DNA of 64,000 nucleotides from Alphaproteobacteria bacterium. Lineage in GTDB: Bacteria > Pseudomonadota > Alphaproteobacteria > CAAHEQ01 > UBA3637. The translations under genes were made by a program, and so were the position numbers. The stretch spans positions 11,316-75,315 of the forward strand of contig JAZUQR010000026.1 in assembly GCA_045605805.1 (NCBI GenBank), given 5' to 3'. Under the pieces are notes generated by a model. The model was not told where the DNA came from and ran no database searches. It saw only the letters and a list, made by a program, of their open reading frames with translations. Within the stretch, counting starts at the first letter, position 1. Every line of letters begins with the position of its first letter. Positions 28,184 to 48,685 of the stretch are shown one piece after another.

Positions 28184-28354
28184 GGGTGACCAGTCAGATT
28201 TCAAAAGTGACCAGCCCCCGATTTTTGAAAATAGTATAAGTATTTGATATTACTGTATTTTTATGCGGCCAGTGACGAGACCGATTTTTTCTGTTTCGCT
28301 AAAAAAATGGCGCGGCTTGTGTCCCCGAATATGAATTATCACCAGGAAGGATCC
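28184..28354 (-). other. cos-like packaging-site sequence, copy A, with GTGACCAG repeats
   Basis: 60/69 ungapped identity to 46025-46093; minus strand GGATCCTTCCTGG...GGGGACACAAGC-CGCG. Confidence 0.55.
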
Positions 28355-28418: not shown

Positions 28419-28751
28419 TCATATCTGTTGGATTTCAATCCCCAGCACGCCATATTTTTGTTGAGAATCAGGTGTATAAAATTCTTGTAAAACCGTAATC
28501 AATTCTTCTTTGGATGTAAAACCTGCCTGTTCCGGTGTGATAATTTGGCATAGTTTATCAAAACTTTCGGCCCTGTGCAGGTTTATGACCCGAGCAACAA
28601 AGGAATCATTTGTATCAGATAAATTAGAAAACACAATCTTATCCCCTATTTTTATTTGTTGCCTTTTTTCGTCAAACAACCTAAGCTCAACAACTTTTTT
28701 ACCTGATTTTAACAGATTGTAATACTTTGTTTGGACTTTCATATGATGCAT
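28419..28751 (-). CDS. ASCH domain protein
   Basis: YYNLLKSGKKVVELRLFDEKRQQIKIGDKIVF, YGVLGIEI. Confidence 0.9.
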   Translation of the reverse strand: MHHMKVQTKYYNLLKSGKKVVELRLFDEKRQQIKIGDKIVFSNLSDTNDSFVARVINLHRAESFDKLCQIITPEQAGFTSKEELITVLQEFYTPDSQQKYGVLGIEIQQI

Positions 28752-28823: not shown

Positions 28824-29348
28824 ATGCAAATAAAAACTTTTCATTCTTTTCACAAAGAGCATAAAAAGTTATACGAAGATATTTTAAGTTTAACTTATTC
28901 TGTCAATGATACTTACCCACAATATTCAACTTGGTTTAAAGAAAAGTTTTTACCAGACCTTAAAAATAAAAAAAGGATGTATATCGTTGCACAGGATGAA
29001 AGCGGAAAATTAGTTGGTTGTGTTTTGATTAAAAACACCGAAGAAGAAAAGAAAATTTGTACATTATTGGTTCATCCGGATTATCGCAAACAAGGTGTTG
29101 GTGAAAAACTGATGGAACAAACTTTATCAGAATTAGGTGAGCACCCTTTGATAACCGTTTCTGATAGAAATATAGCACAACTAACTCCTCTTTTAAGAAA
29201 AAAAGGTTTTCATTTATCGGCAGTTAAAAAAGGGGCTTATCGTCCAGAAGACACAGAGTATTATTTTAACGATAAAAAAGCAGATGCTATAAAAAACGGT
29301 CTTATTCCCGTTTTAATCAAAAGAATGAATAAATTACGTCAAAAATAA
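28824..29348 (+). CDS. GNAT acetyltransferase
   Basis: KICTLLVHPDYRKQGVGEKLM; divergent from ASCH gene. Confidence 0.88.
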   Translation: MQIKTFHSFHKEHKKLYEDILSLTYSVNDTYPQYSTWFKEKFLPDLKNKKRMYIVAQDESGKLVGCVLIKNTEEEKKICTLLVHPDYRKQGVGEKLMEQTLSELGEHPLITVSDRNIAQLTPLLRKKGFHLSAVKKGAYRPEDTEYYFNDKKADAIKNGLIPVLIKRMNKLRQK

Positions 29349-29711: not shown

Positions 29712-30182
29712 CTACTTTTCGGTTTTTTTATAGAGAATAAAGTGAGGTAATTTATCCATATCTATATAATTAAACATTTTATAATTAGCTCGTCTGGCTT
29801 CAGGAGATAAGGTGTACTTTCTTAAATGATCCTTAGGGACGAAAGGATAGAACCAAATCTCATGATGTGAAACACCTTTTTCTTTCCATTTAAAATTGAG
29901 AATTAACAACGGAGGTAAAATCCCAGCTTTCAAAACTTTTTCCATAATGTCCCAACCGGCTCCACGAACAACGGATGAAGGTTTATGGTTAGCACTTTTA
30001 ATTTGGGCGCGAAAATTACAGCCAGTACATTGAATATCACACAGCGGATAATTGTTTGGTAAAAGCATTAACTTTTTACCGCCATTAGGACAACAGACCA
30101 AATCTACAACTTCTTGTTCCCCAAGCTTTCCATTTTCCTGGTTAATTGACATTTCTACCTCCATATCTGTTGTTATATACAT
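29712..30182 (-). CDS. DpnI-like (Dam-replacing family) catalytic-domain nuclease
   Basis: CCPNGG..LPNNYPLCDIQCTGCNFRAQIKS..GAGWDIM resembles the DpnI Zn/PD-(D/E)xK N-terminal domain; true start may be 30152. Confidence 0.7.
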   Translation of the reverse strand: MYITTDMEVEMSINQENGKLGEQEVVDLVCCPNGGKKLMLLPNNYPLCDIQCTGCNFRAQIKSANHKPSSVVRGAGWDIMEKVLKAGILPPLLILNFKWKEKGVSHHEIWFYPFVPKDHLRKYTLSPEARRANYKMFNYIDMDKLPHFILYKKTEK

Positions 30183-30238
30183 AATAACAGCTGAAAGTTT
30201 TAGAATTTACAATATTATTCAAAAATTTTTCTATTTCA

Positions 30239-30271
30239 CTGGACTTCTTCGTTTTTCCAAGCATTCATTGT
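30239..30271 (+). promoter_or_regulatory. Element-specific promoter-like motif, copy 2
   Basis: CTGGAC-N13-CAAGCATTCATTGT then GAAAGGAG RBS. Confidence 0.55.
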
Positions 30272-30293
30272 AATGTAACGAAAGGAGTTTATT

Positions 30294-30608
30294 ATGAATA
30301 CAGTTAAAGTTTATTTGGTGCGAAAACCTTTGGATTTTGAAGAAGTAAAAAACTTATGCAAAAAGTATGCGCATAAGGCCGAAGAGATCTTAATTGAAGA
30401 AACTGTCAACCTACCACCAACTTGGTATGAGGAGTTTTGCCAACGCCCATTGGATAACTACATTTTCTTATCCGGTAAAGGCGGTTATGATGATTTAGGC
30501 CACCGCAAAGTAGTTGCTATAAAATGCCTAGGCAAGCCAACGCTCTAGGTTGATCCTTCCGGCTCAAGCTATTGCCGATATATGGGAGTAGAAAATGAAA
30601 AATTATAA
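30294..30608 (+). pseudogene. Small phage-associated protein (DUF6329-like) with in-frame TAG at 30546
   Basis: Paralog of 45523-45831; after the TAG the frame continues VDPSGSSYCRYMG. Confidence 0.8.
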
Positions 30609-30831
30609 TGACATTCCTCCAAATTACAAAATCAGCATGCCGATGGTTTATAACCACGCAATTAGAGTACTTGATAGGCTGGATAGACGACTGAGCAGAC
30701 TTAACACCCCAGCGCTACCGATTAAATACAAATACGAAATCAATCGTCTAGAACATAAACTGGAACAAATGGTCGCTAAATACAAAGCCATTGAAAAGGA
30801 GTTGGAATATGTCCGAACCAAAATATCCTGA
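30595..30831 (+). CDS. Hypothetical small coiled-coil protein
   Basis: GGGAG RBS; overlaps both neighbours. Confidence 0.6.
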   Translation: MKNYNDIPPNYKISMPMVYNHAIRVLDRLDRRLSRLNTPALPIKYKYEINRLEHKLEQMVAKYKAIEKELEYVRTKIS

Positions 30832-31012
30832 GATAACTGTGCACCTGGCAGGTGAAAATGGGAATGCTTTTTATATTTTAGGCAAATGTCGTTCGGCGAT
30901 GAGGCGTGCTAACATCTCCAAAGAAGAACAAGATGAATTTTACCGCCAAGCCACCGCCAGCGACTATAATCACTTATTCATCACCTGTATGGAATGGTTT
31001 AATGTAGAATAG
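30809..31012 (+). CDS. Small phage-associated hypothetical protein (GxxGNAF motif)
   Basis: Paralog of 45315-45512; AAGGAG RBS. Confidence 0.8.
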   Translation: MSEPKYPEITVHLAGENGNAFYILGKCRSAMRRANISKEEQDEFYRQATASDYNHLFITCMEWFNVE

Positions 31013-31077
31013 GTCTATTTTTCTTGATTTTTTATGAATTAAAGGATATGCTGATTAAAAATCAGGAGGAAATAGCT

Positions 31078-32001
31078 ATGCAACCCAAATTTTTACATTC
31101 TTTTGTGACGCGTTCTCATAAAGGCGTTTATGGCATTATTCGGAAAAATAATCAGATTTTACTCATCCGTAAAGCACGTGGTCCCTATACAGGGCTTTAT
31201 GATTTGCCCGGTGGAAGTCCGGAAGCTGATGAAACACCTGAACAAACAGTGGCTCGTGAAATCAAAGAAGAAACAAATTGTGATTTAATTTCTTGCACCA
31301 ACCAACGTGAAAAAACAATTTTCTTTTCCAAATTTACCAAAGAAAGTGGAGAAGAAGGCTGTATGCAACACACGGGGATTTTGTTTGATGTTAAGGTGGC
31401 GGGTGAACCCACAACCCAAGGGGATGGATTAGATTCCAATGGAGCTGTTTGGGTAGATATCAATACTTTATCCAGTCAAAATGCAACACCTTTTGTTTTA
31501 ATGGGCTGTGGTAAGGAAGTTATCAATTTAGCCAATGAAGAGGATTACCCTGTGGATGTCGCTGTGCGTGGGGAACCTATCCCCGAAGGAAGGTGTCCCA
31601 TGATTGCAGGTCTCTTTTTGTTCAACTCTAAAGGCAATATTATTTTGCAGAAAGTGGCTTTATCAAAGAAAACAGATCCGGGGAAATGGAGTTATTCTGC
31701 TGCTGGGCATGTGGATGCTGGTGAAACTTATGAACAGGCTGCCTTACGTGAATTAAGCGAAGAAATGGGAATTAAGGCCTCCGGCATAACCTTTGTTGGA
31801 AAAGGCCATATATTAAAGAACGGCAATCCTCGTGCTTTTCATCATGTATTCAAGGTGATTTCTGATGATAAGATTACTTTTGAACCGACCGAGGTAGCCG
31901 AAGTTAAAGAATGGACTATTCCGGAATTAAAAGAGCAAATAGGGACTCACCCCGAACAATTCAAAGATATTTTTGCCCAAATTTTTATGGAGGTCTTTTA
32001 A
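31078..32001 (+). CDS. Tandem double NUDIX hydrolase
   Basis: GGSPEADETPEQTVAREIKEET and AGHVDAGETYEQAALRELSEEMG. Confidence 0.9.
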   Translation: MQPKFLHSFVTRSHKGVYGIIRKNNQILLIRKARGPYTGLYDLPGGSPEADETPEQTVAREIKEETNCDLISCTNQREKTIFFSKFTKESGEEGCMQHTGILFDVKVAGEPTTQGDGLDSNGAVWVDINTLSSQNATPFVLMGCGKEVINLANEEDYPVDVAVRGEPIPEGRCPMIAGLFLFNSKGNIILQKVALSKKTDPGKWSYSAAGHVDAGETYEQAALRELSEEMGIKASGITFVGKGHILKNGNPRAFHHVFKVISDDKITFEPTEVAEVKEWTIPELKEQIGTHPEQFKDIFAQIFMEVF

Positions 32002-32014
32002 TCAAGGAGGAAAC

Positions 32015-32449
32015 ATGTCAGGACCAGAAAGATTTAAAGTACCCGTTGGGATTTTTATAATGCTACGTCAAGACGATAAAGTTTTGTTGCAGCTGAGGCA
32101 AAATTGCTCGTTCAGTGGATATTGGGGATTCGTTGGTGGCCATTTGGATGGAAATGAACAGATCATCTCTGCCGCTATTCGTGAAGCAAAAGAGGAAGTC
32201 GGGGTGGATATTTTACCGGACGATTTGACCTTAAAGACCATTTGCCACAGTAATAAAGGCGAAGAGTACCTGCAATTTTATTTTGAATGTCGCAAGTGGT
32301 TAGGTGAAATTGAAAATAAGGAGCCCCACAAATGCGAACGCTTGGAATGGCATGAATGGAATAAGCTCCCTGAGCATACTTGTCCCTATTTGAAGGAAGC
32401 AGTAAGCAAAATCAATTCAGGAATTTCTTTTTACGAGGATACTTTTTAA
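32015..32449 (+). CDS. NUDIX hydrolase
   Basis: GGHLDGNEQIISAAIREAKEEVG; NKEPHKC. Confidence 0.9.
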   Translation: MSGPERFKVPVGIFIMLRQDDKVLLQLRQNCSFSGYWGFVGGHLDGNEQIISAAIREAKEEVGVDILPDDLTLKTICHSNKGEEYLQFYFECRKWLGEIENKEPHKCERLEWHEWNKLPEHTCPYLKEAVSKINSGISFYEDTF

Positions 32450-33039
32450 TGCTGAATAAACTTATTTACTTAACGACAAATCCTCATAAAGTTCAAGAAG
32501 CCAATGAATTTCTTATTAAGAAATATGGGTTTAATTTGGAAATCATGAAACCTTCTTTTGAAGTGCTGGAGATTCAAGCAAAAACTTGTGGCGAGGTTGC
32601 GAAATTTAGCGCTAAGTATGGGGCTGAAAAACTGGGAGTTCCGGTTTTGAAATCCGATTCAGGACTTTATATCGAAGCATTGGGCGGTTTGCCAGGACCT
32701 TATAATGCCTATTTTGACAAGCAAATAGGAACAGAAAAGTTTTTGGATATGATGAAAGATATCCCAAATAGGCATGCTAAATTGGAACATTGTTTTGCTT
32801 ATTGTGAGCCAGGACAAGAACCCATCTTGTTTACAGGGGGAAGTACGGGGCGTATTTCTTATGAAGCCAAAGGAGAGAAAGGGCGTTGGCATGACAAGTT
32901 TTATATCCCTGATGGGGAAGAAAAAACACTCAGCGAATTACGCGCCATCAACCATGAATATGAGGCACAATTTTGGGGACATGCCTTGGATGACTTTGCA
33001 AAATGGTACAAAGAAAAATTAGAAAAGGATAAAATTTAG
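32449..33039 (+). CDS. HAM1/ITPase-family non-canonical purine NTP pyrophosphatase
   Basis: TTNPHKVQE, EIQ, SDSGLYIEALGGLPGPY; canonical SHR motif replaced. Confidence 0.88.
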   Translation: MLNKLIYLTTNPHKVQEANEFLIKKYGFNLEIMKPSFEVLEIQAKTCGEVAKFSAKYGAEKLGVPVLKSDSGLYIEALGGLPGPYNAYFDKQIGTEKFLDMMKDIPNRHAKLEHCFAYCEPGQEPILFTGGSTGRISYEAKGEKGRWHDKFYIPDGEEKTLSELRAINHEYEAQFWGHALDDFAKWYKEKLEKDKI

Positions 33040-33053
33040 TGAAAGGATAACAA

Positions 33054-33635
33054 ATGCAATTACCAGAACAAATTGAATCAGAACGGATTATTTTAAAGCA
33101 CCCTATGAAACCGACCTTTAAATTGGCTGAGGAGCTTTACGCGATTGTGGATAAATCCAGAAATACTTTAAGCGAATGGCTCCCTTGGGTGGATAAAACG
33201 AACTCTGTAGAGGATGAATTTACTGGATATCTGGTGAGTCTGAATCAAAAACATTGGGATGAAGGAAATGGTTTCGGTTATCTTATTTATCAAAAGGAAA
33301 CAAATCAGATTTTAGGCGTTGTGGATTTATGCCATGTTGAGGAAAAACATCAATCCGCCGAAATCGGGTATTGGCTCTCTGATGACGCAACAGGTCATGG
33401 GTATATGCAAGAGGCTGTGCGTGCGTTGGAAAGCGAGGCCTTTCAAAATGGACTTAACCGGATTATCATCAGAAATGATACTTTGAATATACGCTCTGCC
33501 CATGTGGCTGAACGCTGTGGTTATATTTTGGAAGGTGTCATGCGTCAAGATTGTTGGGATGATTATCATCAGCATTTACGTAATACCAATATCTGGAGCA
33601 AACTCAAATCCGAATGGGAGAAAGAACAAAAATGA
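33054..33635 (+). CDS. RimJ/RimL-type GNAT acetyltransferase
   Basis: AEIGYWL...GHGYMQEAV, NIRSAHVAERCGYILEG. Confidence 0.9.
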   Translation: MQLPEQIESERIILKHPMKPTFKLAEELYAIVDKSRNTLSEWLPWVDKTNSVEDEFTGYLVSLNQKHWDEGNGFGYLIYQKETNQILGVVDLCHVEEKHQSAEIGYWLSDDATGHGYMQEAVRALESEAFQNGLNRIIIRNDTLNIRSAHVAERCGYILEGVMRQDCWDDYHQHLRNTNIWSKLKSEWEKEQK

Positions 33636-34843
33636 TTTCACTCAAATCAGCCCCTAGATGGTTATCTATTGCTTATGCCTTAACATCGGCATTGTTTTGC
33701 CTGCCGACATTAATGCTTTTTTATGGGTTTAAAGGTGTTGGTATGGGGGATTTTTTCTTGATTCAAGGGATATCAAATCTCACTGTATTTTTTATGGAAG
33801 TTCCAACCGGCTATATCGGTGATTTGTTTTCCAGAAAACACACTTTAATTATCGGGGTATTGTTTTGGATCTTGGGGCATGTTATTTGGATTTTGGGTTC
33901 AGGATTTTTCATTATTTTACTGGGGGAATTGTTATTTGCATTAGCGATTGCTTTCATTTCCGGCACGGCGGAAGCATATTTATACGATTTATTGAAAAAA
34001 CGACATAAAGAAAGTTTATTCCATAAAAAATATGCTAAAATGAAAATGTTGGATGGAATTGCTTTGATGGTGGCTACGCTGACCGGTGCTTTTATCTATC
34101 AATTTTTGGGGCCAACCATTCCGTTATACTTAACAATTTTCTGTTTAATGTTAAGTGTTGTTATTTTATGGCAATTACCGGATGTTCCCGAATCCAGACG
34201 TATTGTTGACAAAGATAAAAGCAAATGGCAGGATATTTTGGATATTTCCAAATATGCCGTTAAACATCCTGAAATAAAATGGCTGATGCTTTTACCGGCG
34301 GTGTATGGGACATTAACGCTTATTTTGATGTGGGGATTACAATCCGTTATGGTATTTCATCAATTACCTGTATTTGTTTTCAGTTTGATTTTAGGGATAA
34401 ACGCATTGATGAGAACTTTTTGGTCGGGCGTTTCCGGTCGGATATTGGAAAAAATAAACCTTTCCGGAACCATAAAATTGCAAAGTTTAATTATTATCAT
34501 TGCCTCTTTGGGGGCATGTATATCGGCCTATGTTCCGTTATGGGGTGTTTATATATGTTTGGGCTTGATGATTATCGGATCAGCCTCCAGTTCTTTATCC
34601 AGTATCACAACATCTGTTTTGGTCAATCATAGGATTCAATCCAATGAACGGGCGACAATTTTATCGGTTAAATCAATGCTGGCAAAGGCTTTTCATGGGG
34701 TGGGACTTATCTGCTTGAAACCCTTGTTTGACGGAATAGGTGTCGGACCAACTTTTATGGTATCTGCCCTGCTTTTAATCCCTATTCTGATTTGTGCAAG
34801 ACACCTGTATAAGATGAAGTTAAGGATAATGAAAGGGGACTGA
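33632..34843 (+). CDS. MFS transporter
   Basis: EVPTGYIGDLFSRK, SGTAEAYLYD, RATILS. Confidence 0.9.
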   Translation: MISLKSAPRWLSIAYALTSALFCLPTLMLFYGFKGVGMGDFFLIQGISNLTVFFMEVPTGYIGDLFSRKHTLIIGVLFWILGHVIWILGSGFFIILLGELLFALAIAFISGTAEAYLYDLLKKRHKESLFHKKYAKMKMLDGIALMVATLTGAFIYQFLGPTIPLYLTIFCLMLSVVILWQLPDVPESRRIVDKDKSKWQDILDISKYAVKHPEIKWLMLLPAVYGTLTLILMWGLQSVMVFHQLPVFVFSLILGINALMRTFWSGVSGRILEKINLSGTIKLQSLIIIIASLGACISAYVPLWGVYICLGLMIIGSASSSLSSITTSVLVNHRIQSNERATILSVKSMLAKAFHGVGLICLKPLFDGIGVGPTFMVSALLLIPILICARHLYKMKLRIMKGD

Positions 34844-34844
34844 T

Positions 34845-35738
34845 ATGCTGATACTGAACATCAATGGGCCAATGAATTCTGGGAAATCTACGGTTTCTAA
34901 GATTTTGGTGAATATGCTCCCTAACGCCACTTTTATTGAAGTGGATGAATTAATGAGTGATGAGGAACAAGAAAAACTGGGGCTATCCCTGCAACAAGGG
35001 TGGCGGGAACGTCATAAACGATTAAATCAGAAATTAAGGGCTCTTAAAAAATCGCATGAGTATGAAACTGTGATTTTTGCTTATCCGATTGCTGACAATA
35101 CTTATCAGGATTGGAAAATGCTGGAGGATAACCACACAAAGTTTTTGAACATTACCCTTGCGCCCAGTTTGGAAGAATGTTTGAAAAATCGTGGCACACG
35201 AGAACTCACCGATTGGGAAAGAAATCGCATTCGTGAAATGTATGAAGAGGGATATCAAAACCGCCCATACGCCGACTTTATCATCAATAATGACCATCAA
35301 ACACCCAAAGAAACTGCTGAGATTATTAAAGGATTTATTGAACATGCTCTCTCCCCAAAACAACAATGGTTACATTTGGTGGAAAAACGTTGGCCCGCCC
35401 TTTTGAACGGAGAAAAAACTTCCACTTTCCGTTTCAATGAAGGTTTCATCCATAAGGGCTTCTTGGTTTATAAAGACTGCCCAAACGAACAGTTGGCCGA
35501 GGTTGTTTATGTGACACATGTGTATTATGTGCCTTTGCGCCAAGCCAATGAAATAGACGGATATGATGAGCATACACCGGATATGGAAACAGCCTTAAAA
35601 CAAATGCGTGTTCATTATCCAGATATTACTTTGGATACGCCCATTTTATTTGCTCAGCACTTAGGAGTTCCTGAAACCAAACAGAAATATCCAGAAGAAG
35701 TTAAAGAAATATTGGAGAAAATGAATGTCAAAAACTAA
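34845..35738 (+). CDS. P-loop NMP/shikimate-kinase-like domain fused to ASCH-like domain
   Basis: GPMNSGKST Walker A; C-terminal WPALLNGEKTSTFR matches the ASCH GxKxxxxR motif. Confidence 0.7.
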   Translation: MLILNINGPMNSGKSTVSKILVNMLPNATFIEVDELMSDEEQEKLGLSLQQGWRERHKRLNQKLRALKKSHEYETVIFAYPIADNTYQDWKMLEDNHTKFLNITLAPSLEECLKNRGTRELTDWERNRIREMYEEGYQNRPYADFIINNDHQTPKETAEIIKGFIEHALSPKQQWLHLVEKRWPALLNGEKTSTFRFNEGFIHKGFLVYKDCPNEQLAEVVYVTHVYYVPLRQANEIDGYDEHTPDMETALKQMRVHYPDITLDTPILFAQHLGVPETKQKYPEEVKEILEKMNVKN

Positions 35739-36132
35739 ATTATCAGTATGTGGTGTCATTGTACATCAGAGCAAATTTCTAATAGTCAAACGTTCTGAAA
35801 CAGATGACTTTTTGCCAAATTGTTGGGAATTCCCTGGTGGTGGTGTAGAAGATGGTGAAACAATATCCGAAGCCTTGAAACGAGAAATAAAAGAAGAAAT
35901 AGGTTGGGATATATCAAATGAATATCCAAAACTCATCGGTATTTCTGAAGAGTTTATGAATGAAGAAAAAACAGAAAGATATTTACAATTAAATTATAAG
36001 ATTGTTATGGACACAGAACCCAACATGACACTCAGTTCCGAACATGTCGCTTTTGATTGGGCGGACACGACCGATTCCAGATTGGACGATTTTCTAAAAG
36101 AGATTATTAGGCAACTGAATACAACAATCTAA
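35725..36132 (+). CDS. NUDIX hydrolase
   Basis: WEFPGGGVEDGETISEALKREIKEEIG, LSSEH. Confidence 0.9.
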   Translation: MSKTKLSVCGVIVHQSKFLIVKRSETDDFLPNCWEFPGGGVEDGETISEALKREIKEEIGWDISNEYPKLIGISEEFMNEEKTERYLQLNYKIVMDTEPNMTLSSEHVAFDWADTTDSRLDDFLKEIIRQLNTTI

Positions 36133-36514
36133 ACTCTTCGCATTCTAACATTGTGTCAGGGGTAATGTCTTTCCAATATGCCTTGTGAATTTTGCGCCAA
36201 GTAGCAAGGGTTTTATCTCCTTCGCCTTCTTTACGAGCAAAATCGGCATCTACATTATTAAAAGGAACAACAGAGACTTTGGTATCCTCAATAATTGCTT
36301 GAGCATTACCAGTAGAATCTAGGATAATACTGATATCTCCTGCTTGATTGGTATTGCCACCTCGATAAATGCAACTAGTGGCCGTTTTCTCGCCACTTAT
36401 GACCAATTGCAACAACTCATCTGGTTTGTCGCCAAAAGTAAAGATGTCATAAGATTTGCCTTTATATGATGGGAACTTTTCAACAAACTCTTTCCATAAT
36501 TGTTCGGGAGTCAT
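36107..36514 (-). CDS. ASCH domain protein
   Basis: LVISGEKTATS, FARKEGEGDKTLATWRKIH. Confidence 0.9.
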   Translation of the reverse strand: MTPEQLWKEFVEKFPSYKGKSYDIFTFGDKPDELLQLVISGEKTATSCIYRGGNTNQAGDISIILDSTGNAQAIIEDTKVSVVPFNNVDADFARKEGEGDKTLATWRKIHKAYWKDITPDTMLECEEFRLLYSVA

Positions 36515-36768
36515 TTGTTTCGCGCTCCTTTTACCCCAAAGACAGCTTTGAAGTTATACCTGTTCTTGTGAATAAGTTCAACCCCATGGGCTTTGGATAT
36601 AACCAGAACATATTTGCCTATCCACAGACGAAAGTAATAACTTTTAATGGCTAATTTAATATTTTCTTTTGTGCGATATTCAGTACCATCAGCCCGCTCC
36701 ACTTCAACACTTCGGCCGAAGCCAAAGCGATTGTTATCCAAATCAAATCCGTATTCAATGTAAATCAT
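36511..36768 (-). CDS. Small hypothetical protein (DUF3977-like)
   Basis: YIEYG..EVERADGTEYR..YFRLWIGK; overlaps neighbours. Confidence 0.6.
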   Translation of the reverse strand: MIYIEYGFDLDNNRFGFGRSVEVERADGTEYRTKENIKLAIKSYYFRLWIGKYVLVISKAHGVELIHKNRYNFKAVFGVKGARNK

Positions 36769-37225
36769 TTTTCTCCAAATAATCTAAAAACGCTTGGCAA
36801 CCTTCATAAATATCCCAATAGGTTTCATCAAAGTTGCCAGTGTACCAAGGGTCTTTAACTGGTCGAGGATTTTGGGTGAAGTCCAACAGACGATGCACTT
36901 TATGGTCTTTATCCTCGCCAACGATATCCAAAATATCCCGCACATTGTTATCGTCCATCGCCAAAATATAGTCAAATTTATCATAGTCGGACTTGCGAAT
37001 TTGACGCGAGTAGTGTTGGGTGAAAGGGACTTTCATCTGCCGAAGCATATCCGCCGCTCGGTAATCCAGCGCCTCATGCACCATTTCGTTATACCCCTCT
37101 GTCGCGGCAGAGACAATTTCAAACTTGTCCGCTACACCTTTCTCAGCGACCATTTGCTTCATCACAAATTCCGCCATTGGCGACCGACAAATATTTCCAA
37201 GACATACGAATAGAACTTTAATCAT
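36755..37225 (-). CDS. Low molecular weight protein-tyrosine phosphatase
   Basis: FVCLGNICRSPMAE, DPWY. Confidence 0.95.
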   Translation of the reverse strand: MIKVLFVCLGNICRSPMAEFVMKQMVAEKGVADKFEIVSAATEGYNEMVHEALDYRAADMLRQMKVPFTQHYSRQIRKSDYDKFDYILAMDDNNVRDILDIVGEDKDHKVHRLLDFTQNPRPVKDPWYTGNFDETYWDIYEGCQAFLDYLEKNDLH

Positions 37226-40200
37226 TAAGCAACCCTCACATTGTCTGTCCAAAGTTCACATTGAGTCATAACCGTTTCAACGGCATCCTCTACACCTTCT
37301 GGGGGATACTTATGCTTTTTCAATAACTTTTTAATAAGCATACGCATCTTTGCACGAGCATTCTCACGCCTTTGCCAGTCAATTGTTTTATTTTTACGCA
37401 GTGTTTCTGTTAGTTCTTTTGTAATGGCAACTAATTCGTCATTTTCATAAAAATCCTTAACTGCTTGAGGCTTTGTTAATGCATCATAAAAGGCAACTTC
37501 TTCTGGTGTTAATCCTAAATCTGCCCCTTCCTTTTGGGCCTCCGAAATTTGTTTTGCCAGGCTGAGTAACTCTTCTATTACCTGCTCGTTGGTAAGCATA
37601 CCATTTAGGTAGCGGTTCATAATTGCCTGAATTATTTCACTAAACTTTTCAGAACGCACAACGTTTGTTTTACGGTAAATAGAAATTTGTTCTGCAATTA
37701 ATTTTTTCAAAAGTTCAAGGGCTAAATTCTTTTGTTTCATTTTTGAAATTTCTTCCAAAAACTTCGGATCAAACAAAGAAAATTCTTTCTTTACATCAGA
37801 AAATAAATTAATAACGCCATCGCTTTTTATACTTTGTTTCAGCAACTCATTAATACGTTCATTCATTTCCTTCAAAGAAATCTTTTTGCCTTCTCCTGCA
37901 TTAGTTAAGCGTAAGGTCAAAACACGAACGGCTTCCATAAAAGCGGCTTCTATGCGTTTTTCTTCCTTAACAATAGAAGAACACAAAGATAAGGATTGAT
38001 GTAGCATCAAGGCATGCTTCAGGAATTGTTCTTTTTTCTTATCTGTTCCAATAATAAAGTTTACTGCCCCACTAATAAGCTCAGCACGCTTTAAATTACT
38101 ACCCGTCATAAATTGTTGATAATCAAATCCATGCAATAAATCACGACAAACACTTAATTTTTCTTCAAATTCTTTAAGTGCTGTTTCAGCGATATTCATA
38201 TTTCCATAGTTCTTTTTATCACGAACTGTGTAATCGTTCATCGCTTGTTTCAGCGCATTTGCAATTCCGACATAATCTACAACAAGTCCACCTTCTTTAT
38301 CCTCAAATACACGATTAACGCGAGCTATTGCCTGCATTAAATTATGTCCCATCATTGGTTTATAAACATACATCGTTGCCAAAGAAGGTACATCAAATCC
38401 GGTCAACCACATATCCACCACAATGGCAATTTTTAGAGGATCTTTGTTATCCTTAAATTTACGGGCCAACGCTTCTTTATGAGATTTATTTCCAATGATT
38501 TGACGCCAATCTTCTGGGTCATCATTACTAGAAGTCATCACAACCCCCACTTTTTCTTTCCAATTGGGACGTAATTTTAAGATTTCTTCATAAATTTTCA
38601 AAGCAATAGGACGTGAATAAGCAACAATCATCGCCTTTCCAGTAAGCAAGTTTTCCCGATAATTTTCATAGTGGTCTATAATATCGTTTACCAAGGAATG
38701 AATAGTGTTATCATTCCCCAGAATTGCTTCCATTTGCCCAAGTTTCTTTTTACTTGCTTCAATGACTTCAGGATCTGCATTTTGGGCCATTAAATCATAT
38801 TCATCATCAATTTTCTTGAGTGTTTCTTTATCCAGATTCAACTTAACCACTCGACTTTCATAGTAAACGGGGCGAGTTGCTCCATCTTCCACAGCCTGTG
38901 TCATATCATAGATATCAATATAATTTCCAAACACTTCTTGCGTATTTCTGTCTTTTTTGGAAATAGGTGTCCCCGTAAACCCGATAAATGTTGCATTTGG
39001 AAGACTATTGCGGATAACACGAGCAGTCCCTGTTTTAATTTTCCCGTCTTTGGTTATTTTTTCCGCCAAACCATATTGCCCCCGATGAGCTTCATCTGCC
39101 ATCACAATAATATTCCGGCGAGTGGACAATGGCTCTTCGGATTCTTCAAACTTCTGCATCGTTGTAAAGAAAATCCCATTGGCCTTGATACCATTTAATA
39201 ACTTTTTCAAATGTTCCCGACTAGTTGCTTGAACGGGTTCTTGTCTTAAAAAGTCTTTACATTTGGCAAATTGTCCATAGAGTTGATCGTCCAAATCATT
39301 GCGGTCTGTTAGTACCACAATTGTCGGACTGTTTAAAGCACTTTGTAGCAGGTGGGCATAAAACACCATAGATAAAGATTTACCAGAACCTTGTGTATGC
39401 CAAAACACACCACCTTTACCATCTGTTTCTGTTGCTTTTTGAGTTGAAGTAATGGCTTTTTTCACCGCGAAGTATTGGTGATATCCGGCCAAGATCTTTT
39501 TGCTTCCTTTATTTTCATTGGAAAAGCAAATAAAGTTCTTCAAAATATCCAAGAGTCTCTCTTTTGGAAAGATGCCTTTAAAAAAAGTATCAAACTGTGC
39601 GTGTTGGGTATTTTCATATTTTCCATCCACAGTTTTCCATTCCATAAAGCGTGTTTCATCAGAAGTAATCGTTCCCGCCTTGGATGTCAATAAATCGCTT
39701 GTGACGCAAATAGCGTTATAGATAAACATAGAGGGGATTTCATGTTTATAGTTTTGGATTTGGCGATATGCCTCGGAGGCATCTGTTTCTTCACGGGAAG
39801 GAGATTTCAACTCCATCAAAACCAAAGGCAATCCGTTCACAAATAACAAAATATCCGGACGTTTTTCGCTGTTTTCAATAAAGGTCCATTGGTTAGCTAC
39901 AATAAAAGAGTTTTTATCAGGTCTATTATAATCAATCAAATAAACAATGGTATCTTTGGGTTCTCCCTTTTCTGTATAGCGAACCGTAATACCACTTTGC
40001 AAATACTCCATAAACACAGCATTCTTTTGTGTTAGTTCTGCGTTCTCAAAGTTCTTTAATTTTGTTAAGGCCTCTTTAATCGCCACTTCGGGAAGTTTAG
40101 GATTCAAGCGGCACAAAGCATCAATCAACTCATCTTCGTATAAGGGAGAATGAAAATCCCGACTTTCTAAATCAGGCCCATAGACATACCGATACCCCAT

Positions 40201-40272
40201 CCCCTCAAACAACTCTATTACAGAGTTTTCATAAGCTTCTTCATTTACAGGATTGATAAAAGTATCGGTCAT
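37225..40272 (-). CDS. hsdR: Type I restriction endonuclease subunit R
   Basis: RPDILLFVNGLPLVLMELK, HTQGSGKS, DEAH, FTGTP, MWLTGFD. Confidence 0.97.
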   Translation of the reverse strand: MTDTFINPVNEEAYENSVIELFEGMGYRYVYGPDLESRDFHSPLYEDELIDALCRLNPKLPEVAIKEALTKLKNFENAELTQKNAVFMEYLQSGITVRYTEKGEPKDTIVYLIDYNRPDKNSFIVANQWTFIENSEKRPDILLFVNGLPLVLMELKSPSREETDASEAYRQIQNYKHEIPSMFIYNAICVTSDLLTSKAGTITSDETRFMEWKTVDGKYENTQHAQFDTFFKGIFPKERLLDILKNFICFSNENKGSKKILAGYHQYFAVKKAITSTQKATETDGKGGVFWHTQGSGKSLSMVFYAHLLQSALNSPTIVVLTDRNDLDDQLYGQFAKCKDFLRQEPVQATSREHLKKLLNGIKANGIFFTTMQKFEESEEPLSTRRNIIVMADEAHRGQYGLAEKITKDGKIKTGTARVIRNSLPNATFIGFTGTPISKKDRNTQEVFGNYIDIYDMTQAVEDGATRPVYYESRVVKLNLDKETLKKIDDEYDLMAQNADPEVIEASKKKLGQMEAILGNDNTIHSLVNDIIDHYENYRENLLTGKAMIVAYSRPIALKIYEEILKLRPNWKEKVGVVMTSSNDDPEDWRQIIGNKSHKEALARKFKDNKDPLKIAIVVDMWLTGFDVPSLATMYVYKPMMGHNLMQAIARVNRVFEDKEGGLVVDYVGIANALKQAMNDYTVRDKKNYGNMNIAETALKEFEEKLSVCRDLLHGFDYQQFMTGSNLKRAELISGAVNFIIGTDKKKEQFLKHALMLHQSLSLCSSIVKEEKRIEAAFMEAVRVLTLRLTNAGEGKKISLKEMNERINELLKQSIKSDGVINLFSDVKKEFSLFDPKFLEEISKMKQKNLALELLKKLIAEQISIYRKTNVVRSEKFSEIIQAIMNRYLNGMLTNEQVIEELLSLAKQISEAQKEGADLGLTPEEVAFYDALTKPQAVKDFYENDELVAITKELTETLRKNKTIDWQRRENARAKMRMLIKKLLKKHKYPPEGVEDAVETVMTQCELWTDNVRVA

Positions 40273-41123
40273 TTTTTCTCCTTTAATCCTTTAAGAAATT
40301 CAGCCATTTTGTTTTTCCGTTCTTTATTATCTTTAGCCAAAACGCAGAATAAAAGCAATTGATAAATTTCATCATACCACTTTTCTAATTCTTCATTGGT
40401 CAGATTTGTTACTAGATTATTTTTCTTTTTACCTGCCTTGTTATTATGACGAATATCTAAATTATTAAGCATATTCTTTGCAGTTTTGAAATAATCAGTG
40501 AATCCGTCAATAGGATTATCTAAAATAGGTTCATATTCCTGAGCAATTCGACGTAAAATATCTTTTTTTTCTGCTAATTGTCCCTTTAATGATGCATGAT
40601 GGTATTTTAAAATTGCCATTGCTGTATCTGTAGAGGAAATTTCTGCTACAGCTGTTGCAGCAGGATTTTTAGGAATTAAAATAACTTTTTCTTCTTCAGT
40701 AAATATCTTCTTTTCATGGTGAATATGTTCTAAAAGCAAATCTATATTACTCAAAAGCATAGGATATTCATTATAATACTGAAAATTAATATTTTGACGA
40801 CCAACTCCTCGCTTCTGTATCAATAAATTTATAAGATTAAGATAATACTCTAAAATTGTTACCATTTCATCAGTGGTATCCACATGTTCTGAAATGAATA
40901 TTTTGTGTCTCATTTCATCACAGTTTAAGCAACTTCCTCTTTGCTTCCAATTTACAAAAGCATAACTATCTACCATTTGTTCAATAGTTCCCTGTGTTTG
41001 TTGAAAATTTAAAGGATTTGTATACACCAACATTGCGGTATTAAATAATTTAACAATTTTTCGAAATTCTTTTTGAAAATCATACTTGCTTGCTAAAATT
41101 TCAAAGATATTTTTACGAGTCAT
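40269..41123 (-). CDS. Hypothetical protein inserted in type I R-M operon
   Basis: Low GC; ATGA-coupled; DIRHNN motif. Confidence 0.75.
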   Translation of the reverse strand: MTRKNIFEILASKYDFQKEFRKIVKLFNTAMLVYTNPLNFQQTQGTIEQMVDSYAFVNWKQRGSCLNCDEMRHKIFISEHVDTTDEMVTILEYYLNLINLLIQKRGVGRQNINFQYYNEYPMLLSNIDLLLEHIHHEKKIFTEEEKVILIPKNPAATAVAEISSTDTAMAILKYHHASLKGQLAEKKDILRRIAQEYEPILDNPIDGFTDYFKTAKNMLNNLDIRHNNKAGKKKNNLVTNLTNEELEKWYDEIYQLLLFCVLAKDNKERKNKMAEFLKGLKEKK

Positions 41124-41599
41124 GGGGCATCCTTTTTATTTTCCAGTGGCTTATTAAAACAATCGATATTCTTTTTTAGTTCTACTGTTAAATCGTTGGT
41201 TACAGCATATATTTTATAATCTTTTATATTGGCAATATCTTTATTAGTATTATCATCTATTTTGGGAATAAAAACAGTATTATAGGGAGATATCACAAGG
41301 GGACTCCCTAACGCGGTCCAAAAACCACTTTGCGTATTATTATCTTCTACATATATACGGTAAATAACTTCCGTTTTATTTTTATGATTAACAATGCAAA
41401 AGTTTGTTATATTTGCCTTTTGAGTCTTGTGATCATACATTGCTGTCGGCAAAACAATAGATAAATCGTGCCCCGTTCTTTCTTGTTTATCATCTTTTGC
41501 TATCTTTGCCATGGTCTTGGTAAGGAAAAATATGGCAATTGTCAAAATTAACATTGATGTTGATAAAACTATGTTCCAATCTATATAAACCATATTCAA
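41120..41599 (-). CDS. Hypothetical membrane-anchored protein inserted in R-M operon
   Basis: N-terminal TM; ATGA-coupled on both sides. Confidence 0.7.
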   Translation of the reverse strand: MNMVYIDWNIVLSTSMLILTIAIFFLTKTMAKIAKDDKQERTGHDLSIVLPTAMYDHKTQKANITNFCIVNHKNKTEVIYRIYVEDNNTQSGFWTALGSPLVISPYNTVFIPKIDDNTNKDIANIKDYKIYAVTNDLTVELKKNIDCFNKPLENKKDAP

Positions 41600-42807
41600 A
41601 CCTCCACATTATCGACATTGATTTTGCCGGACATGAGTTTGGGTAATAAAGTGTCTCGAAGTGCAGACAACTGGATATTTTCTCTTTGGTTTGCTTTAAT
41701 TTGTGCAAACATTGGAGAAATCACAGAATGGAAATCTTTCAATTCAGATTCTTCTGGCATAACAAAAGGCATTGATTTAATAATTTTTGAATTAACGGCA
41801 GTTGCAATGGATGACGTGCTCCCCATTGTTTGAAAATTAAAGTTTTTCAAATAATAATACAAATATTCGTTTATTTCTTTTTTATCTGTTCCAAAATGAG
41901 CAATGGCTTCGTTTGTTGCCATTTCTCCATCTGTAATTGCAATTCTTCCAACAGTCAGTTTAAAGCTCAATAGAACAGTATTATCTGGTACAATTTTAAC
42001 ATTAAATTTGGAAATTGACTCTGGAACTAAATATTCAGAACTATCAGAAATATACAGCCCACAATTTCCCATATCGGATATAGATATCCATTTAATATCA
42101 TTAGTGTTTTTTGAAAACCATTCAGGCTCTTTTCGGGGAGGAGTTTTCCCGATTGTAATATTAAAAAATTCTTCAGCTTTTATCGTTTTTCTGTTTGGAT
42201 TTATTTTATCTATGAACCAAGATTTAAAGAGGGCTTGGGCTTGGAGTTCGAGGTTTTGATTGATTTTGTTGTTCAGCTCTATCTTATCATCCAGAGCCCC
42301 CAACACCCCCGCAATCTTCCTCTGCACCTCCACTGGCGGTATATTTACAGGGATGGAATACAAATGTCCAACCTTTATGCTAGGTTGTACAGAACTTATA
42401 TTCAATGCTTGTATATAACTTTGTATATTGGGTTGAGATAAACAATAATACATGAATGTAGAGTCAATGTCCTCTTTATACTGCATGGCAATGATGTTTT
42501 GCGCTATACACCCCTTATCTTGCGGCATTAAAGCAACTTTTCCAATGTTTCCAACAGTTGTTATTAAAACATCTTTTGGGTTGGGATGTCCACTTCGAAA
42601 CCAATTCTGATACGTTTCAATATTAACAAATTTTGATGCAGAAGCCAAATCTGGGTATCTATCTCCAGCTTTTAATAAGTTGCTTTCAAGTAGAGGAATG
42701 ATACCTTCCGTATCCAAGGGTGCATTCTTTCCCCGGTTATCAATTGTATTTTTAACCAAATCCCCTAATTTAATCTCTCGCCAACCTGACATTATATTAT
42801 TTGCCAT
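41596..42807 (-). CDS. hsdS: Type I R-M specificity subunit (two TRDs)
   Basis: WREIKLGD, PPVEVQRKIAGVLGALDDKIELNNKIN, LRDTLLPKLMSG. Confidence 0.95.
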   Translation of the reverse strand: MANNIMSGWREIKLGDLVKNTIDNRGKNAPLDTEGIIPLLESNLLKAGDRYPDLASASKFVNIETYQNWFRSGHPNPKDVLITTVGNIGKVALMPQDKGCIAQNIIAMQYKEDIDSTFMYYCLSQPNIQSYIQALNISSVQPSIKVGHLYSIPVNIPPVEVQRKIAGVLGALDDKIELNNKINQNLELQAQALFKSWFIDKINPNRKTIKAEEFFNITIGKTPPRKEPEWFSKNTNDIKWISISDMGNCGLYISDSSEYLVPESISKFNVKIVPDNTVLLSFKLTVGRIAITDGEMATNEAIAHFGTDKKEINEYLYYYLKNFNFQTMGSTSSIATAVNSKIIKSMPFVMPEESELKDFHSVISPMFAQIKANQRENIQLSALRDTLLPKLMSGKINVDNVEV

Positions 42808-42817
42808 CAAATATTCC

Positions 42818-43702
42818 CTATTTTTTAATAAGTTCATATAGCAAAGGAAAGTTACTTTTTTGGTAAGAATCCAAGTATTGGCTTGGAATGTCCTTTAATG
42901 TTTCATTATTAAATTCATAGATATCAACAATTTCCCTTGAAACAATTTTTTCTTCACCATTTTTCTGTAATTTATTATATCTTACCAAGGCTAAAATAGT
43001 ATCATTTTGATTGCTACGACGCAATGGATGCTTTCCTAATAAAAACTCCTCTCTAAACTTCTGGTCTTTTATTGATGCAATTAATGTTGTATTATTTTCT
43101 AAATCTTTAAAATTCCAATTTCCCTCTGTTTCCGTATTAATTGGTTTGTATATAACTAGTTTCTGGATTTTATATACGGGATCTAAATTTCTTATGATAT
43201 CCCCTTCCACATATTTGAGAAAATCTTTTCTTTTAATTGGAAAGGTATGTTCATTAGAAAAACCAACCCCATTAATATGGTTATTTAGCCAACACCTTTT
43301 ATAAAAGTTTGATTTTGCATTAAGTGCAGCATCCAAATTTATCGATGCAGGAATTTCGATATGTTCTTGCAACATGAAGCCAGAAAACATTTCAGAAATA
43401 TATTGTCCGGCGTTTTCCCCCAATTCATTTAGGCTCTTCCCTGTTAATCCTTTAATAAAACCAGGCACAAATTCATTAAACAAAAATGATCCCAAAAACA
43501 AACAAATTGTAAATTTTCCTTTAAAAGAACCTTCTTCTGTTGCATTTAAATATATTTGATAATCCGTGTCCTTAAAACAGGTTTTTGTAATATTTTTATA
43601 TATCAATTCAATTTGCTGTGATAAAAAAATAAAATCAGATAATTCCAACGCATGTGTTGGGGTATCTAAATGTAATATAAATTCACTCTTTTGTTCAGTC
43701 AT
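42818..43702 (-). CDS. Hypothetical protein between hsdM and hsdS
   Basis: Low GC; ATEEGSF motif; coupled to hsdM. Confidence 0.75.
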   Translation of the reverse strand: MTEQKSEFILHLDTPTHALELSDFIFLSQQIELIYKNITKTCFKDTDYQIYLNATEEGSFKGKFTICLFLGSFLFNEFVPGFIKGLTGKSLNELGENAGQYISEMFSGFMLQEHIEIPASINLDAALNAKSNFYKRCWLNNHINGVGFSNEHTFPIKRKDFLKYVEGDIIRNLDPVYKIQKLVIYKPINTETEGNWNFKDLENNTTLIASIKDQKFREEFLLGKHPLRRSNQNDTILALVRYNKLQKNGEEKIVSREIVDIYEFNNETLKDIPSQYLDSYQKSNFPLLYELIKK

Positions 43703-45210: not shown

Positions 45211-45314
45211 TTTGGACCTCTTTTCGTTTAGAATCATAATATCGTAAATTCTAGCCGATTTTTTCTGAAAAGGCAATCAGAAATATAAGGTCTGTTGTAT
45301 TTAATTATGGTGCT

Positions 45315-45512
45315 TTACTCTACCTCAAACCATTTCATGCAGGTGGCAAGCAAGTGGTCGTAATTGCCGGAGGTGGCTTCTGCCTGAAAGGCATCTTGTT
45401 CTTTTTGATTCAAACCGGCTTGACGCATGGCTCTTAAACAGATACCTAGGATATTAAAGGCATTCCCGTCTTTACCGGTCAACTGGACAATAATATCAGG
45501 ATATTTTGGCAT
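45315..45512 (-). CDS. Small phage-associated hypothetical protein (GKDGNAF motif)
   Basis: Paralog of 30809-31012; AAGGAG RBS. Confidence 0.8.
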   Translation of the reverse strand: MPKYPDIIVQLTGKDGNAFNILGICLRAMRQAGLNQKEQDAFQAEATSGNYDHLLATCMKWFEVE

Positions 45513-45522
45513 GACGATCTCC

Positions 45523-45831
45523 TTATTTAACCTCAAGCCCCAAGTAGCGGCAGTAGCTTGATCCTGACGGGTCGGCGTAAAGTGTCGGCTGACCGTCACA
45601 TTCCAGGGCGATAACCTGACGTTGGTTGTCGTCGTTATATCCGCCTTTGCCGGATAAAAAGATGTAGTTATCCAGAGGGCGTTGGCAGACAGCCTGATAC
45701 CAAGCAGGCGATAAATGAACTGTTTCGGCTATCACCACTTCTTTGGCTTGGTGTGCATATTTTTGGGTTAAATCCCGAACTTCGGAAATATCGGAGGGCT
45801 TGCGGACCATGTAAGTTTTAACTGTTTTCAT
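45523..45831 (-). CDS. Small phage-associated protein (DUF6329-like), intact copy
   Basis: RKP..., LDNYIFLSGKGG, DPSGSSYCRYLG. Confidence 0.8.
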   Translation of the reverse strand: MKTVKTYMVRKPSDISEVRDLTQKYAHQAKEVVIAETVHLSPAWYQAVCQRPLDNYIFLSGKGGYNDDNQRQVIALECDGQPTLYADPSGSSYCRYLGLEVK

Positions 45832-45850
45832 GATAATCTCCTTTCGCATC

Positions 45851-45883
45851 ACAATGAACGCTCTTTTTCGAAGAATTATCCAG
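45851..45883 (-). promoter_or_regulatory. Element-specific promoter-like motif, copy 3
   Basis: CTGGAT-N13-AGAGCGTTCATTGT then GAAAGGAG RBS. Confidence 0.55.
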
Positions 45884-45926: not shown

Positions 45927-46096
45927 GGGTGACCAGCCAGAAGTGACCAGTGACCAGCCAGGAAAAATTGGGTCCCCTTATAACCCTTGTGTTTATTGGG
46001 GTTTGAGATATACCCGACCAGCCAGAATTTTTCGGTTTCGCTAGAAATATGGCGCGGCTTGCGTCCCCGCATATGAAATCTCGCCAGGAAGGACCT
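45927..46096 (-). other. cos-like packaging-site sequence, copy B, with GTGACCAG repeats
   Basis: Minus strand AGGTCCTTCCTGG...GGGGACGCAAGC-CGCG...GAAAAATTCTGG; GTGACCAG at 45929, 45943, 45950. Confidence 0.6.
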
Positions 46097-47508: not shown

Positions 47509-47541
47509 CAGGTGTGTCCTTTCTAATGAGAGGGAAAATGG

Positions 47542-48499: not shown

Positions 48500-48685
48500 A
48501 GTTATCGCTTTTTATGGATTACCTAGCAAAGAAAGTTTTGGTTGGTTCATCTGCTTAAATAGCACTTTTGCTTTCTTTTCCCAAAAAACACAGATGAATT
48601 GTGGTAAATGGGCATTTTCACATTGAGCCTAAAATGCATCACAAGAGCTTTTGTAACGGGCTTATCATTCCCCTGTTTCAAATAT

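Follow-up and report, generated by a model that had tools for sequence, protein, structure and literature searches.

A mobile, reshuffled cluster of nucleotide-processing enzyme genes with a kinase-ASCH fusion in an alphaproteobacterial genome

Organisation of the gene cluster

The stretch of DNA analysed here (hereafter referred to as the window) comprises 64,000 nucleotides (nt) of an alphaproteobacterial genome (GenBank assembly GCA_045605805.1, contig JAZUQR010000026.1, positions 11,316 to 75,315) and is part of an assembly of 1.21 Mb in 31 contigs, rated 98.85% complete. It carries, at 31078-36132, seven intact plus-strand genes which the list of open reading frames (ORFs) and their translations show to be tightly abutting, with junctions that range from a 14-nt gap to a 14-nt overlap. 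The seven genes (hereafter the operon) encode members of the NUDIX, HAM1, GNAT and MFS families and a fusion of a P-loop kinase with an ASCH domain, as follows.

31078-32001, plus strand: double-NUDIX protein (NUDIX2x), 307 amino acids (aa) from the ATG; PF00293 in two stretches, 124 bits
32015-32449, plus strand: single-domain NUDIX protein (NUDIXb), remotely MutT/Nudt1-like; PF00293, 64.8 bits
32449-33039, plus strand: HAM1/RdgB-family nucleoside triphosphate (NTP) pyrophosphatase, accessory paralogue; PF01725, 106 bits
33054-33635, plus strand: RimL/MccE-type GNAT N-acetyltransferase; PF13302 (Acetyltransf_3), 79.5 bits
33632-34843, plus strand: MFS_1 transporter, drug-efflux-like; Pfam MFS_1
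34845-35738, plus strand: fusion of P-loop kinase (residues 1-165) and ASCH domain (about residues 174-294), motif GxKxxTxR; Pfam and structure model
35725-36132, plus strand: single-domain NUDIX protein (NUDIXc), remotely NudI/NudG/MutT-like; PF00293, above cut-off

All seven proteins score above the Pfam cut-offs and match the lengths of their homologues. An earlier note, made from the sequence alone, had described seven abutting or overlapping, co-oriented and intact genes of these families, and the ORFs, Pfam domains and homologue lengths confirm it; the Pfam and NCBIfam scans likewise agree with its assignment of the enzymes to nucleotide-processing families. The start of NUDIX2x at ATG 31078 is preceded by AGGAGG, its relatives being 307-309 aa long, and the MFS gene likely starts at the ATG at 33632, in an ATGA overlap with the GNAT stop. 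The GC content of the operon (39.0%) is unremarkable (genome 40.7%, neighbouring restriction-modification (R-M) genes 35.6%). Promoter-like and terminator-like sequences occur at the numbers expected from shuffling (26 against 29.0 and 10 against 8.9, respectively), and the scan is therefore uninformative on the transcription unit. In RNA libraries (X18 and X20), contigs about 90-95% alike, and hence derived from relatives, span the MFS gene and the first part of the kinase gene, one of them bridging the MFS/kinase junction; such contigs cannot prove transcription or a single transcript and are a weak hint at most, and gaps in their cover carry no meaning.

The kinase-ASCH fusion

The enzymes are of known kinds, and what is new is the lineage-specific fusion of a kinase with an ASCH domain, together with the mobile clustering and the gene-precise reshuffling described below. 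No description of the fusion, of such an operon, or of such mobile clustering or reshuffling was found in the literature searched. The AlphaFold model of the fusion has a mean predicted local distance difference test (pLDDT) value of 96.6 and a predicted template modelling score (pTM) of 0.93. In the structure search, the kinase half was found to resemble shikimate and gluconate kinases, chloramphenicol phosphotransferase, APS kinase and a tunicamycin-resistance protein, and is on this model predicted to be a small-molecule kinase. The ESM Atlas places the domain among uncharacterised AAA_18/SKI/CPT-type kinases, which give no clue to the substrate.

The ASCH half matches PF04266 with 28 bits (cut-off 21.2). 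Its octapeptide reads GEKTSTFR, and G20, K22, T25 and R27 are conserved to at least 90% in the 16 members of the subfamily. Searches of the solved structures with the sequence of the whole fusion or of the lone ASCH domain gave no useful match, and the subfamily profile alone reached YqfB, the N4-acetylcytidine (ac4C) amidohydrolase of E. coli (PDB 9kyf; best solved match, E-value 0.03), with K, T, R and Tyr89 aligned, the last with an invariant Tyr of the subfamily. The model of the ASCH domain (pLDDT 91.3) matches 2dp9, ZmASCH and 9kyf (TMt 0.66 for the last). The fusion thus shares with YqfB the ASCH fold, the GxKxxTxR octapeptide and the aligned Tyr89, whereas YqfB is a stand-alone protein of about 103 aa, the domain here is fused to a P-loop kinase, the similarity is marginal and an equivalent of Glu74 is not conserved. 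Downstream of the column aligned with Glu74, which is the general acid of YqfB (His70 is also named), the subfamily has an invariant Asp and a near-invariant His. In PMC6972931, K21, T24 and R26 are given as essential for YqfB, and a preprint (10.64898/2026.02.27.708502) reports that ac4C was deacetylated by 19 of 19 ASCH proteins assayed, GKTR and GKER types alike.

The 120 homologues of the fusion that were listed are all metagenomic, and the few that are named come from metagenome-assembled genomes (MAGs) labelled 'Alphaproteobacteria' or 'Pseudomonadota'. An exhaustive search gave one full-length fusion cluster at 50% identity, both halves being widespread as separate proteins, and the fusion, as judged from these searches, appears to be confined to this lineage. 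It is absent from the 50,697 phage records searched, and a plasmid collection yielded homologues of the separate domains only, from Burkholderia and Pantoea, whose gene neighbourhoods were uninformative. The partner domain varies among relatives. Kinase domains 72-88% identical to that of the window are joined to a C-terminal inorganic pyrophosphatase domain at two relative loci (L050:8001-8867, L051:7983-8867) and to an AAA_33 kinase at a third (L052:8001-8963). At two more loci (L054, L055) the kinase has no partner domain. More distant kinase relatives are fused to GNAT or NUDIX domains; for relatives of the ASCH domain, the fusion partners are HAD or GNAT. The ASCH model has three matches in the host genome, the weaker ASCH domain of the fusion not being among them.

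A rival explanation is a set of RNA- or protein-directed roles, by which the ASCH domain would erase ac4C from tRNA, the NUDIX proteins would decap RNA, the kinase would act on RNA ends and the GNAT protein would acetylate ribosomal protein L12. ASCH proteins do deacetylate ac4C in tRNA, according to the same preprint (10.64898/2026.02.27.708502), and there are weak matches to RppH for the NUDIX proteins and to RimL for the GNAT protein, all of them below cut-off. However, the kinase fold matches small-molecule kinases, no polynucleotide kinase being among the 50 structure matches listed; a TmcA-type ac4C writer was not found in the genome (TmcAL was not searched for), and neither HAM1 nor the MFS pump has a part in RNA processes. 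We regard these roles as very unlikely to explain the operon.

Gene order and gene-precise reshuffling

The window was compared with 34 non-redundant relative loci, most of them fetched through the kinase gene, and the adjacency counts are therefore biased towards that gene. The full order of the seven genes recurs at one of the 34 (L011), with an extra HAM1 paralogue, and most of it is preserved at two others (L036, L038). Beyond these, only modules are seen (NUDIX2x-NUDIXb-HAM1, GNAT-kinase, MFS-kinase and kinase-NUDIXc), interspersed with genes for hexapeptide and GNAT acetyltransferases, additional P-loop kinases, a histidine phosphatase, an S51 peptidase, a SLOG protein and resolvases. 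Tandem HAM1 paralogues in the relatives are divergent (34-36% identity). The single fixed system envisaged by the earlier note is therefore not borne out. The note had also held that an order conserved nowhere would speak against its proposal, and the outcome lies between the two, blocks being conserved and the whole not.

The exchange is precise to the gene. Across 25 loci, at least seven different sequences lie directly upstream of the kinase ATG, most of them within a few bases, as follows.

MFS end: 4 loci
GNAT end: 5 loci
NUDIXb end: 1 locus
Another gene: 2 loci
SLOG-end-type sequence: 7 loci (SLOG end in four)
Promoter-like spacer: 3 loci
Unique sequence: 3 loci

In metagenome contigs, the end of HAM1 is joined to the MFS ATG (33025 to 33632) and the end of NUDIX2x to the MFS gene (31989 to 33628). 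Thus, whole genes recombine at their exact start and stop boundaries, and the partner domain of the kinase is exchangeable too. The arrays resemble integron-type cassette arrays in that small co-oriented genes vary in presence and order gene by gene, but the junctions (-14 to +14 nt) are too tight for attC sites, as judged without a formal attC model search. No integron integrase was seen, and a large serine recombinase is linked to the arrays instead.

A mosaic of this kind could reflect the absence of any common function, with unrelated housekeeping-type genes gathered at a recombination hot spot and packed by the compactness of the genome. The many sequences abutting the kinase ATG, the single recurrence of the full order and the promoter- and terminator-like counts at shuffle expectation are all consistent with such accretion. 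Against it, NUDIX, HAM1, GNAT, P-loop kinase and ASCH genes recur together and are fused to one another elsewhere, and a contiguous block of about 5.9 kb (30235-36127), which shares about 90% identity with L011, passes as one piece from species to species. We consider mere accretion quite unlikely.

NUDIX and HAM1 proteins

The glutamates of the REUxEE core are kept in all four NUDIX boxes (GX5EX7REUXEEXGU, read from the translations), the first box having N in place of the final G (...EETNC). The best scores of the NUDIX proteins against the NCBIfam equivalogs for MutT, NudG, NudI and RppH are 44-60 bits and lie below the cut-offs of 95-245. Their matches to solved structures are remote (1e-9 to 1e-10) and include DR0079, IDI, YfcD and MutT for NUDIX2x. 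The HAM1 protein aligns with positions 2-185 of the 186 of PF01725, that is, over the full model length, with scores of 125.5 for TIGR00042 (cut-off 145.35) and 146.5 for NF011396 (cut-off 203).

A canonical HAM1 (182.6 bits) is encoded on another contig of the host genome, and the separate MutT-like gene at 24534 reported in the earlier note is indeed present (NUDIX_4, 72 bits); the HAM1 and NUDIX copies of the operon are therefore extra ones. Nine NUDIX domains were found in the host genome by profile search. NUDIXc has two further copies (DNA identity of about 94%), both with an AAA_33 kinase gene behind them, and these may represent additional arrays or else variants from other strains that were binned with the assembly. 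They lie on short contigs (C2:4843-5384 and C23:4489-5360), and one adjoins a resolvase fragment. The operon enzymes are thus like the house-cleaning NTP pyrophosphatases (MutT/NudG/NudI and RdgB/HAM1) in Pfam membership, intact NUDIX boxes and the full-length HAM1 match, and differ from them in being clustered and mobile, with several divergent paralogues, extra copies and scores below the equivalog cut-offs.

The GNAT protein and the MFS pump

The best solved-structure match of the GNAT protein is the domain of MccE that inactivates microcin C (3r95; 1.8e-14), with proteins of the type of RimL, the L12 N-acetyltransferase, among the next matches. The alignment with 3r95 spans residues 18-165. 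Among 38 homologues, W45 is nearly invariant and S148 invariant, and they are the equivalents of MccE W453 and S553; the position of F466 adjoins a four-residue gap and E572 lies beyond the aligned stretch. In PMC4964394, RimL and MccE are stated to acetylate processed microcin C, W453 (printed there as T453, and taken here as W453) is the stacking Trp, F466 provides a second stacking contact, E572 is the base, and Ser553 is named as well. The protein shares with RimL and the C-terminal domain of MccE the Acetyltransf_3 family fold with its extended N-terminal substrate lobe, the best solved match and the two residue equivalents, and differs from MccE in having no mcc operon context. Its score against the RimL equivalog NF007539 is 68.6 (cut-off 184). 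The MFS pump is nearest, weakly, to tetracycline-type efflux pumps (NCBIfam, below cut-off). In a complex prediction, the kinase-ASCH fusion and the GNAT protein scored 0.00 (mark 0.32), a value that speaks neither for nor against binding.

These likenesses raise the possibility of a cassette dedicated to resistance, directed at antibiotics of the nucleoside or aminoacyl-nucleotide type from gut competitors, in which the GNAT would acetylate and the CPT-like kinase phosphorylate the drug, the ASCH domain would cleave an N4-amide, the MFS pump would act in efflux, and the NUDIX and HAM1 enzymes would destroy activated analogues. In addition to the MccE match, the likeness of the kinase fold to chloramphenicol phosphotransferase and the tunicamycin-resistance protein, the weak likeness of the pump to tetracycline exporters, the hexapeptide acetyltransferase and S51 peptidase of relatives, a nitroreductase carried by the surrounding island and the mobile nature of the cargo are consistent with it. 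However, no curated resistance-family cut-off is reached, the annotated parts of the window showed no mcc-like producer genes, the GNAT may be no more than a ribosomal-protein acetyltransferase, and four pyrophosphatase domains would be superfluous for drug resistance. A cassette of this kind is, on the whole, unlikely.

The island and the neighbouring restriction-modification genes

The operon lies in an island of roughly 20 kb (about 28.1-48.8 kb of the window), which also holds a type I R-M system. Other features of the island are given below.

28419-28751, minus strand: third ASCH/DUF3850-like protein (GxKxxExR), divergent from the next
28824-29348, plus strand: second GNAT
30294-30548, plus strand: small ORF, 84 aa, paralogue of 45523-45852; upstream of the operon also in L011
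30595-30831, plus strand: small coiled-coil-like ORF, 78 aa; at the 5' end of several relatives' arrays
30791-31012, plus strand: phage-type small protein, phrog_1933 (79 bits); inverted paralogue at 45315-45599
36107-36514, minus strand: ASCH protein (1t62-type, motif GEKTATSC); PF04266, 76.8 bits
36511-37225, minus strand: DUF3977 protein and low molecular weight phosphotyrosine phosphatase (LMW-PTP), chained with hsdR; Pfam
37225-45276, minus strand: type I R-M genes hsdM, hsdS and hsdR, with three embedded ORFs of no clear family
47269-48797, minus strand: island end, with DnaD-like loader fragment, large serine recombinase remnants and tRNA-Ala(CGC)

The earlier note had described an island with decayed mobility genes, and this is confirmed by a tRNA-Ala (48722-48797; the only Rfam match in 27000-49500), a serine-recombinase fragment (48248-48499), a DnaD-like loader fragment (47269-47508) and two inverted phrog_1933 genes (30791-31012 and 45315-45599), which bracket the operon and the R-M genes; the inverted DNA copies of these small phage-type genes extend over 30818-31011 and 45316-45509. 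The remnant of the recombinase is 90-96% DNA-identical to a stretch of another relative's locus (L013). A 216-aa ORF adjoining the fragment (47770-48420) has no family match and lies within that stretch. In two relatives the same recombinase is intact and no more than a few kb away from the array (L036:14973-16679, 568 aa; L053:4402-6093, 563 aa); its domains are Resolvase, Recombinase and Zn_ribbon_recom. The element carrying the cargo may still be active in these species.

The operon DNA is 89-91% identical to that of four congeneric genomes, and the flanking core genes are 64-78% DNA-identical to those of congeners (QueA, 72-78% at the protein level). From this contrast the cluster is taken to have been exchanged between species, and the mobility proposed in the earlier note is thereby upheld by the island, the recombinase remnant and the DNA identities. 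Relatives with the same genes are labelled as uncultured Alphaproteobacteria MAGs, some of the labels naming animal gut compartments.

A 78-nt direct repeat (85% identical; 28274-28351 and 46016-46093) lies near both ends of the island. It has no Rfam family and no clear gene, and could be a relic of the element's attachment sites. Of the three small co-oriented ORFs ahead of the operon (30294-31012), two have no family, the 84-aa ORF having no Pfam, PADLOC or PHROG match and the 78-aa ORF no match in profile searches.

The convergent ASCH gene that the earlier note had counted with the operon is present, overlapping the 3' end of NUDIXc by 26 nt, but it belongs to the opposite strand. It is the terminal gene of a nine-gene minus-strand chain (36107-45276) comprising hsdM, ORF294, hsdS, ORF159, ORF284, hsdR, LMW-PTP, DUF3977 and ASCH, with overlaps of 1 nt (hsdR/PTP), 14 nt (PTP/DUF3977) and 4 nt (DUF3977/ASCH), and is not an appendage of the plus-strand operon. 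The upstream pair of a third ASCH and a second GNAT is an addition to that note. Two of the embedded ORFs have weak PADLOC matches (ORF294 to PDC-S42, 3e-4; ORF284 to NucC, 4.5e-4). HsdR shares 99% protein identity with its counterpart in one congener, although QueA of that congener reaches only 75%. A DpnI-like ORF of 156 aa (29712-30182, minus strand), next to the upstream ASCH and GNAT pair, covers positions 17-152 of the 183 of PF06044 and matches the PADLOC model for a methyl-directed type II restriction endonuclease (3e-10); a match to the C-terminal winged-helix domain was not seen, and the ORF is either truncated or a short stand-alone form.

This setting raises the possibility of a defence against phages, as advanced in the earlier note, or against other mobile elements, in which the NUDIX and HAM1 enzymes would destroy the non-canonical deoxynucleoside triphosphates (dNTPs) of phages or deplete nucleotides, complementing the R-M system. 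The phage-derived island, the type I R-M and DpnI-like genes nearby, the horizontal exchange between species and the fast turnover of the modules and HAM1 paralogues are in keeping with it, as is the occurrence of several relatives' arrays near weak R-M similarity (hsdR/hsdM, 25-29%) or a near-identical hsdR, with resolvases. Systems based on dCTP deaminase and dGTPase are nucleotide-depletion defences; the operon shares with such systems its nucleotide-hydrolysing enzymes and its place on a mobile island beside R-M genes. With PADLOC-DB 2.0, the NUDIX proteins of the operon match the candidate PDC-S07 (45-73 bits) and the kinase matches pVip-kinase weakly (21 bits). However, PDC-S07 is matched with 146.7 bits by the MutT-like gene at 24534, taken as a control, which is higher than for the operon proteins, and the match is therefore generic. 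The operon proteins matched no specific PADLOC system or other defence model, including the dCTP deaminase and dGTPase models of PADLOC, as the earlier note had expected. Triggered depletion systems typically have a sensor, a regulator or an effector, none of which is present in the operon; an MFS pump, a GNAT and a small-molecule kinase suit detoxification better, and the absence of the fusion from the phage records gives no sign of exchange of the gene between phage and host. Anti-phage action is thus supported by circumstance (the R-M genes next door, the island, the mobility), and we consider defence an unlikely explanation.

Nucleotide metabolism of the host and probable function

In single-family searches of the host genome, OMP decarboxylase (PyrF), AIRS (PurM/PurL), PRK/uridine kinase (Udk) and a TmcA-type domain were not found, while in the 14 reference genomes used as controls the same searches found OMP decarboxylase and AIRS in all 14, PRK/Udk in 11 and the TmcA-type domain in three. 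For dNK and UPRTase, the host gave matches below the cut-offs only. Taken together, the searches suggest that the organism probably cannot make purines or pyrimidines and is without the usual nucleoside kinases. Alphaproteobacteria of the gut that have reduced genomes and lack nucleotide synthesis are described in PMC12306168; that lineage is cited as a parallel only, membership of the host in it not being established.

The reading that we favour, with moderate confidence, is that the operon is an accessory, mobile toolkit for the sanitation, salvage and detoxification of abnormal nucleosides and nucleotides in a gut bacterium that depends on nucleotides from outside. The three NUDIX proteins, with four domains, and HAM1 would hydrolyse aberrant or foreign (d)NTPs to monophosphates and pyrophosphate; the ASCH half of the fusion would take the N4-acyl group off cytidine-type nucleosides, and the kinase half would phosphorylate a small molecule resembling a nucleoside; toxic compounds akin to aminoacyl nucleotides would be N-acetylated at their amino groups by the RimL/MccE-type GNAT, and the MFS pump would export the products or toxic analogues. 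The members would act separately on related small molecules. Their families, intact catalytic motifs, tight packing, mobility, modular reshuffling and fusions are observed, and it is their substrates, the direction of transport and the common purpose that we infer. Detoxification or sanitation, the second option of the earlier note, fits better than the anti-phage function of the earlier note, since no genes for de novo nucleotide synthesis were found in the host. The fusions, which join the kinase to ASCH, pyrophosphatase or AAA_33 domains, relatives of the kinase to GNAT or NUDIX and relatives of the ASCH domain to GNAT or HAD, tie these families together, and the genes around the kinase gene in relatives are likewise of a small-molecule-modifying kind.

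Several points weigh against this reading. The proteins miss all NCBIfam equivalog cut-offs and the NUDIX structure matches are remote, and the column at YqfB Glu74 is not conserved in the fusion's ASCH subfamily. Four of 20 congeners, one of them 94% complete, have no DNA match to the cluster, and an accessory cluster is a poor fit with an essential salvage role. Each gene not found in the host was sought with a single Pfam model in a draft assembly, and a search for a TLC nucleotide transporter was uninformative, the control having matched in no genome. Mobility, fast module turnover, tandem divergent HAM1 paralogues and the adjoining R-M genes are signatures of conflict systems too.

These signatures admit a further, more speculative reading, which we hold to be quite doubtful, namely that the shuffled NUDIX/HAM1/kinase/ASCH arrays constitute a traded 'nucleotide-pool immunity', each paralogue destroying one class of foreign nucleotide and being swapped as a gene-precise cassette without attC. 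The targets would be phage-specific modified dNTPs or the nucleoside toxins of competitors, and the carriers bacteria that import all their nucleotides.

Conclusion

The reshuffling of whole genes, and of the fusion partner of the kinase, is an unusual pattern of operon evolution and is worth study in itself. If the operon acted in defence, selectively hydrolysing modified dNTPs would amount to a new principle of immunity. If, as we favour, it serves the sanitation, salvage and detoxification of nucleosides and nucleotides, the kinase-ASCH fusion would be a candidate bifunctional enzyme coupling the removal of N4-acyl groups to nucleoside phosphorylation in a genome in which no Udk was found, and the operon would show how a small-genome, uncultured gut lineage guards against abnormal imported nucleosides.

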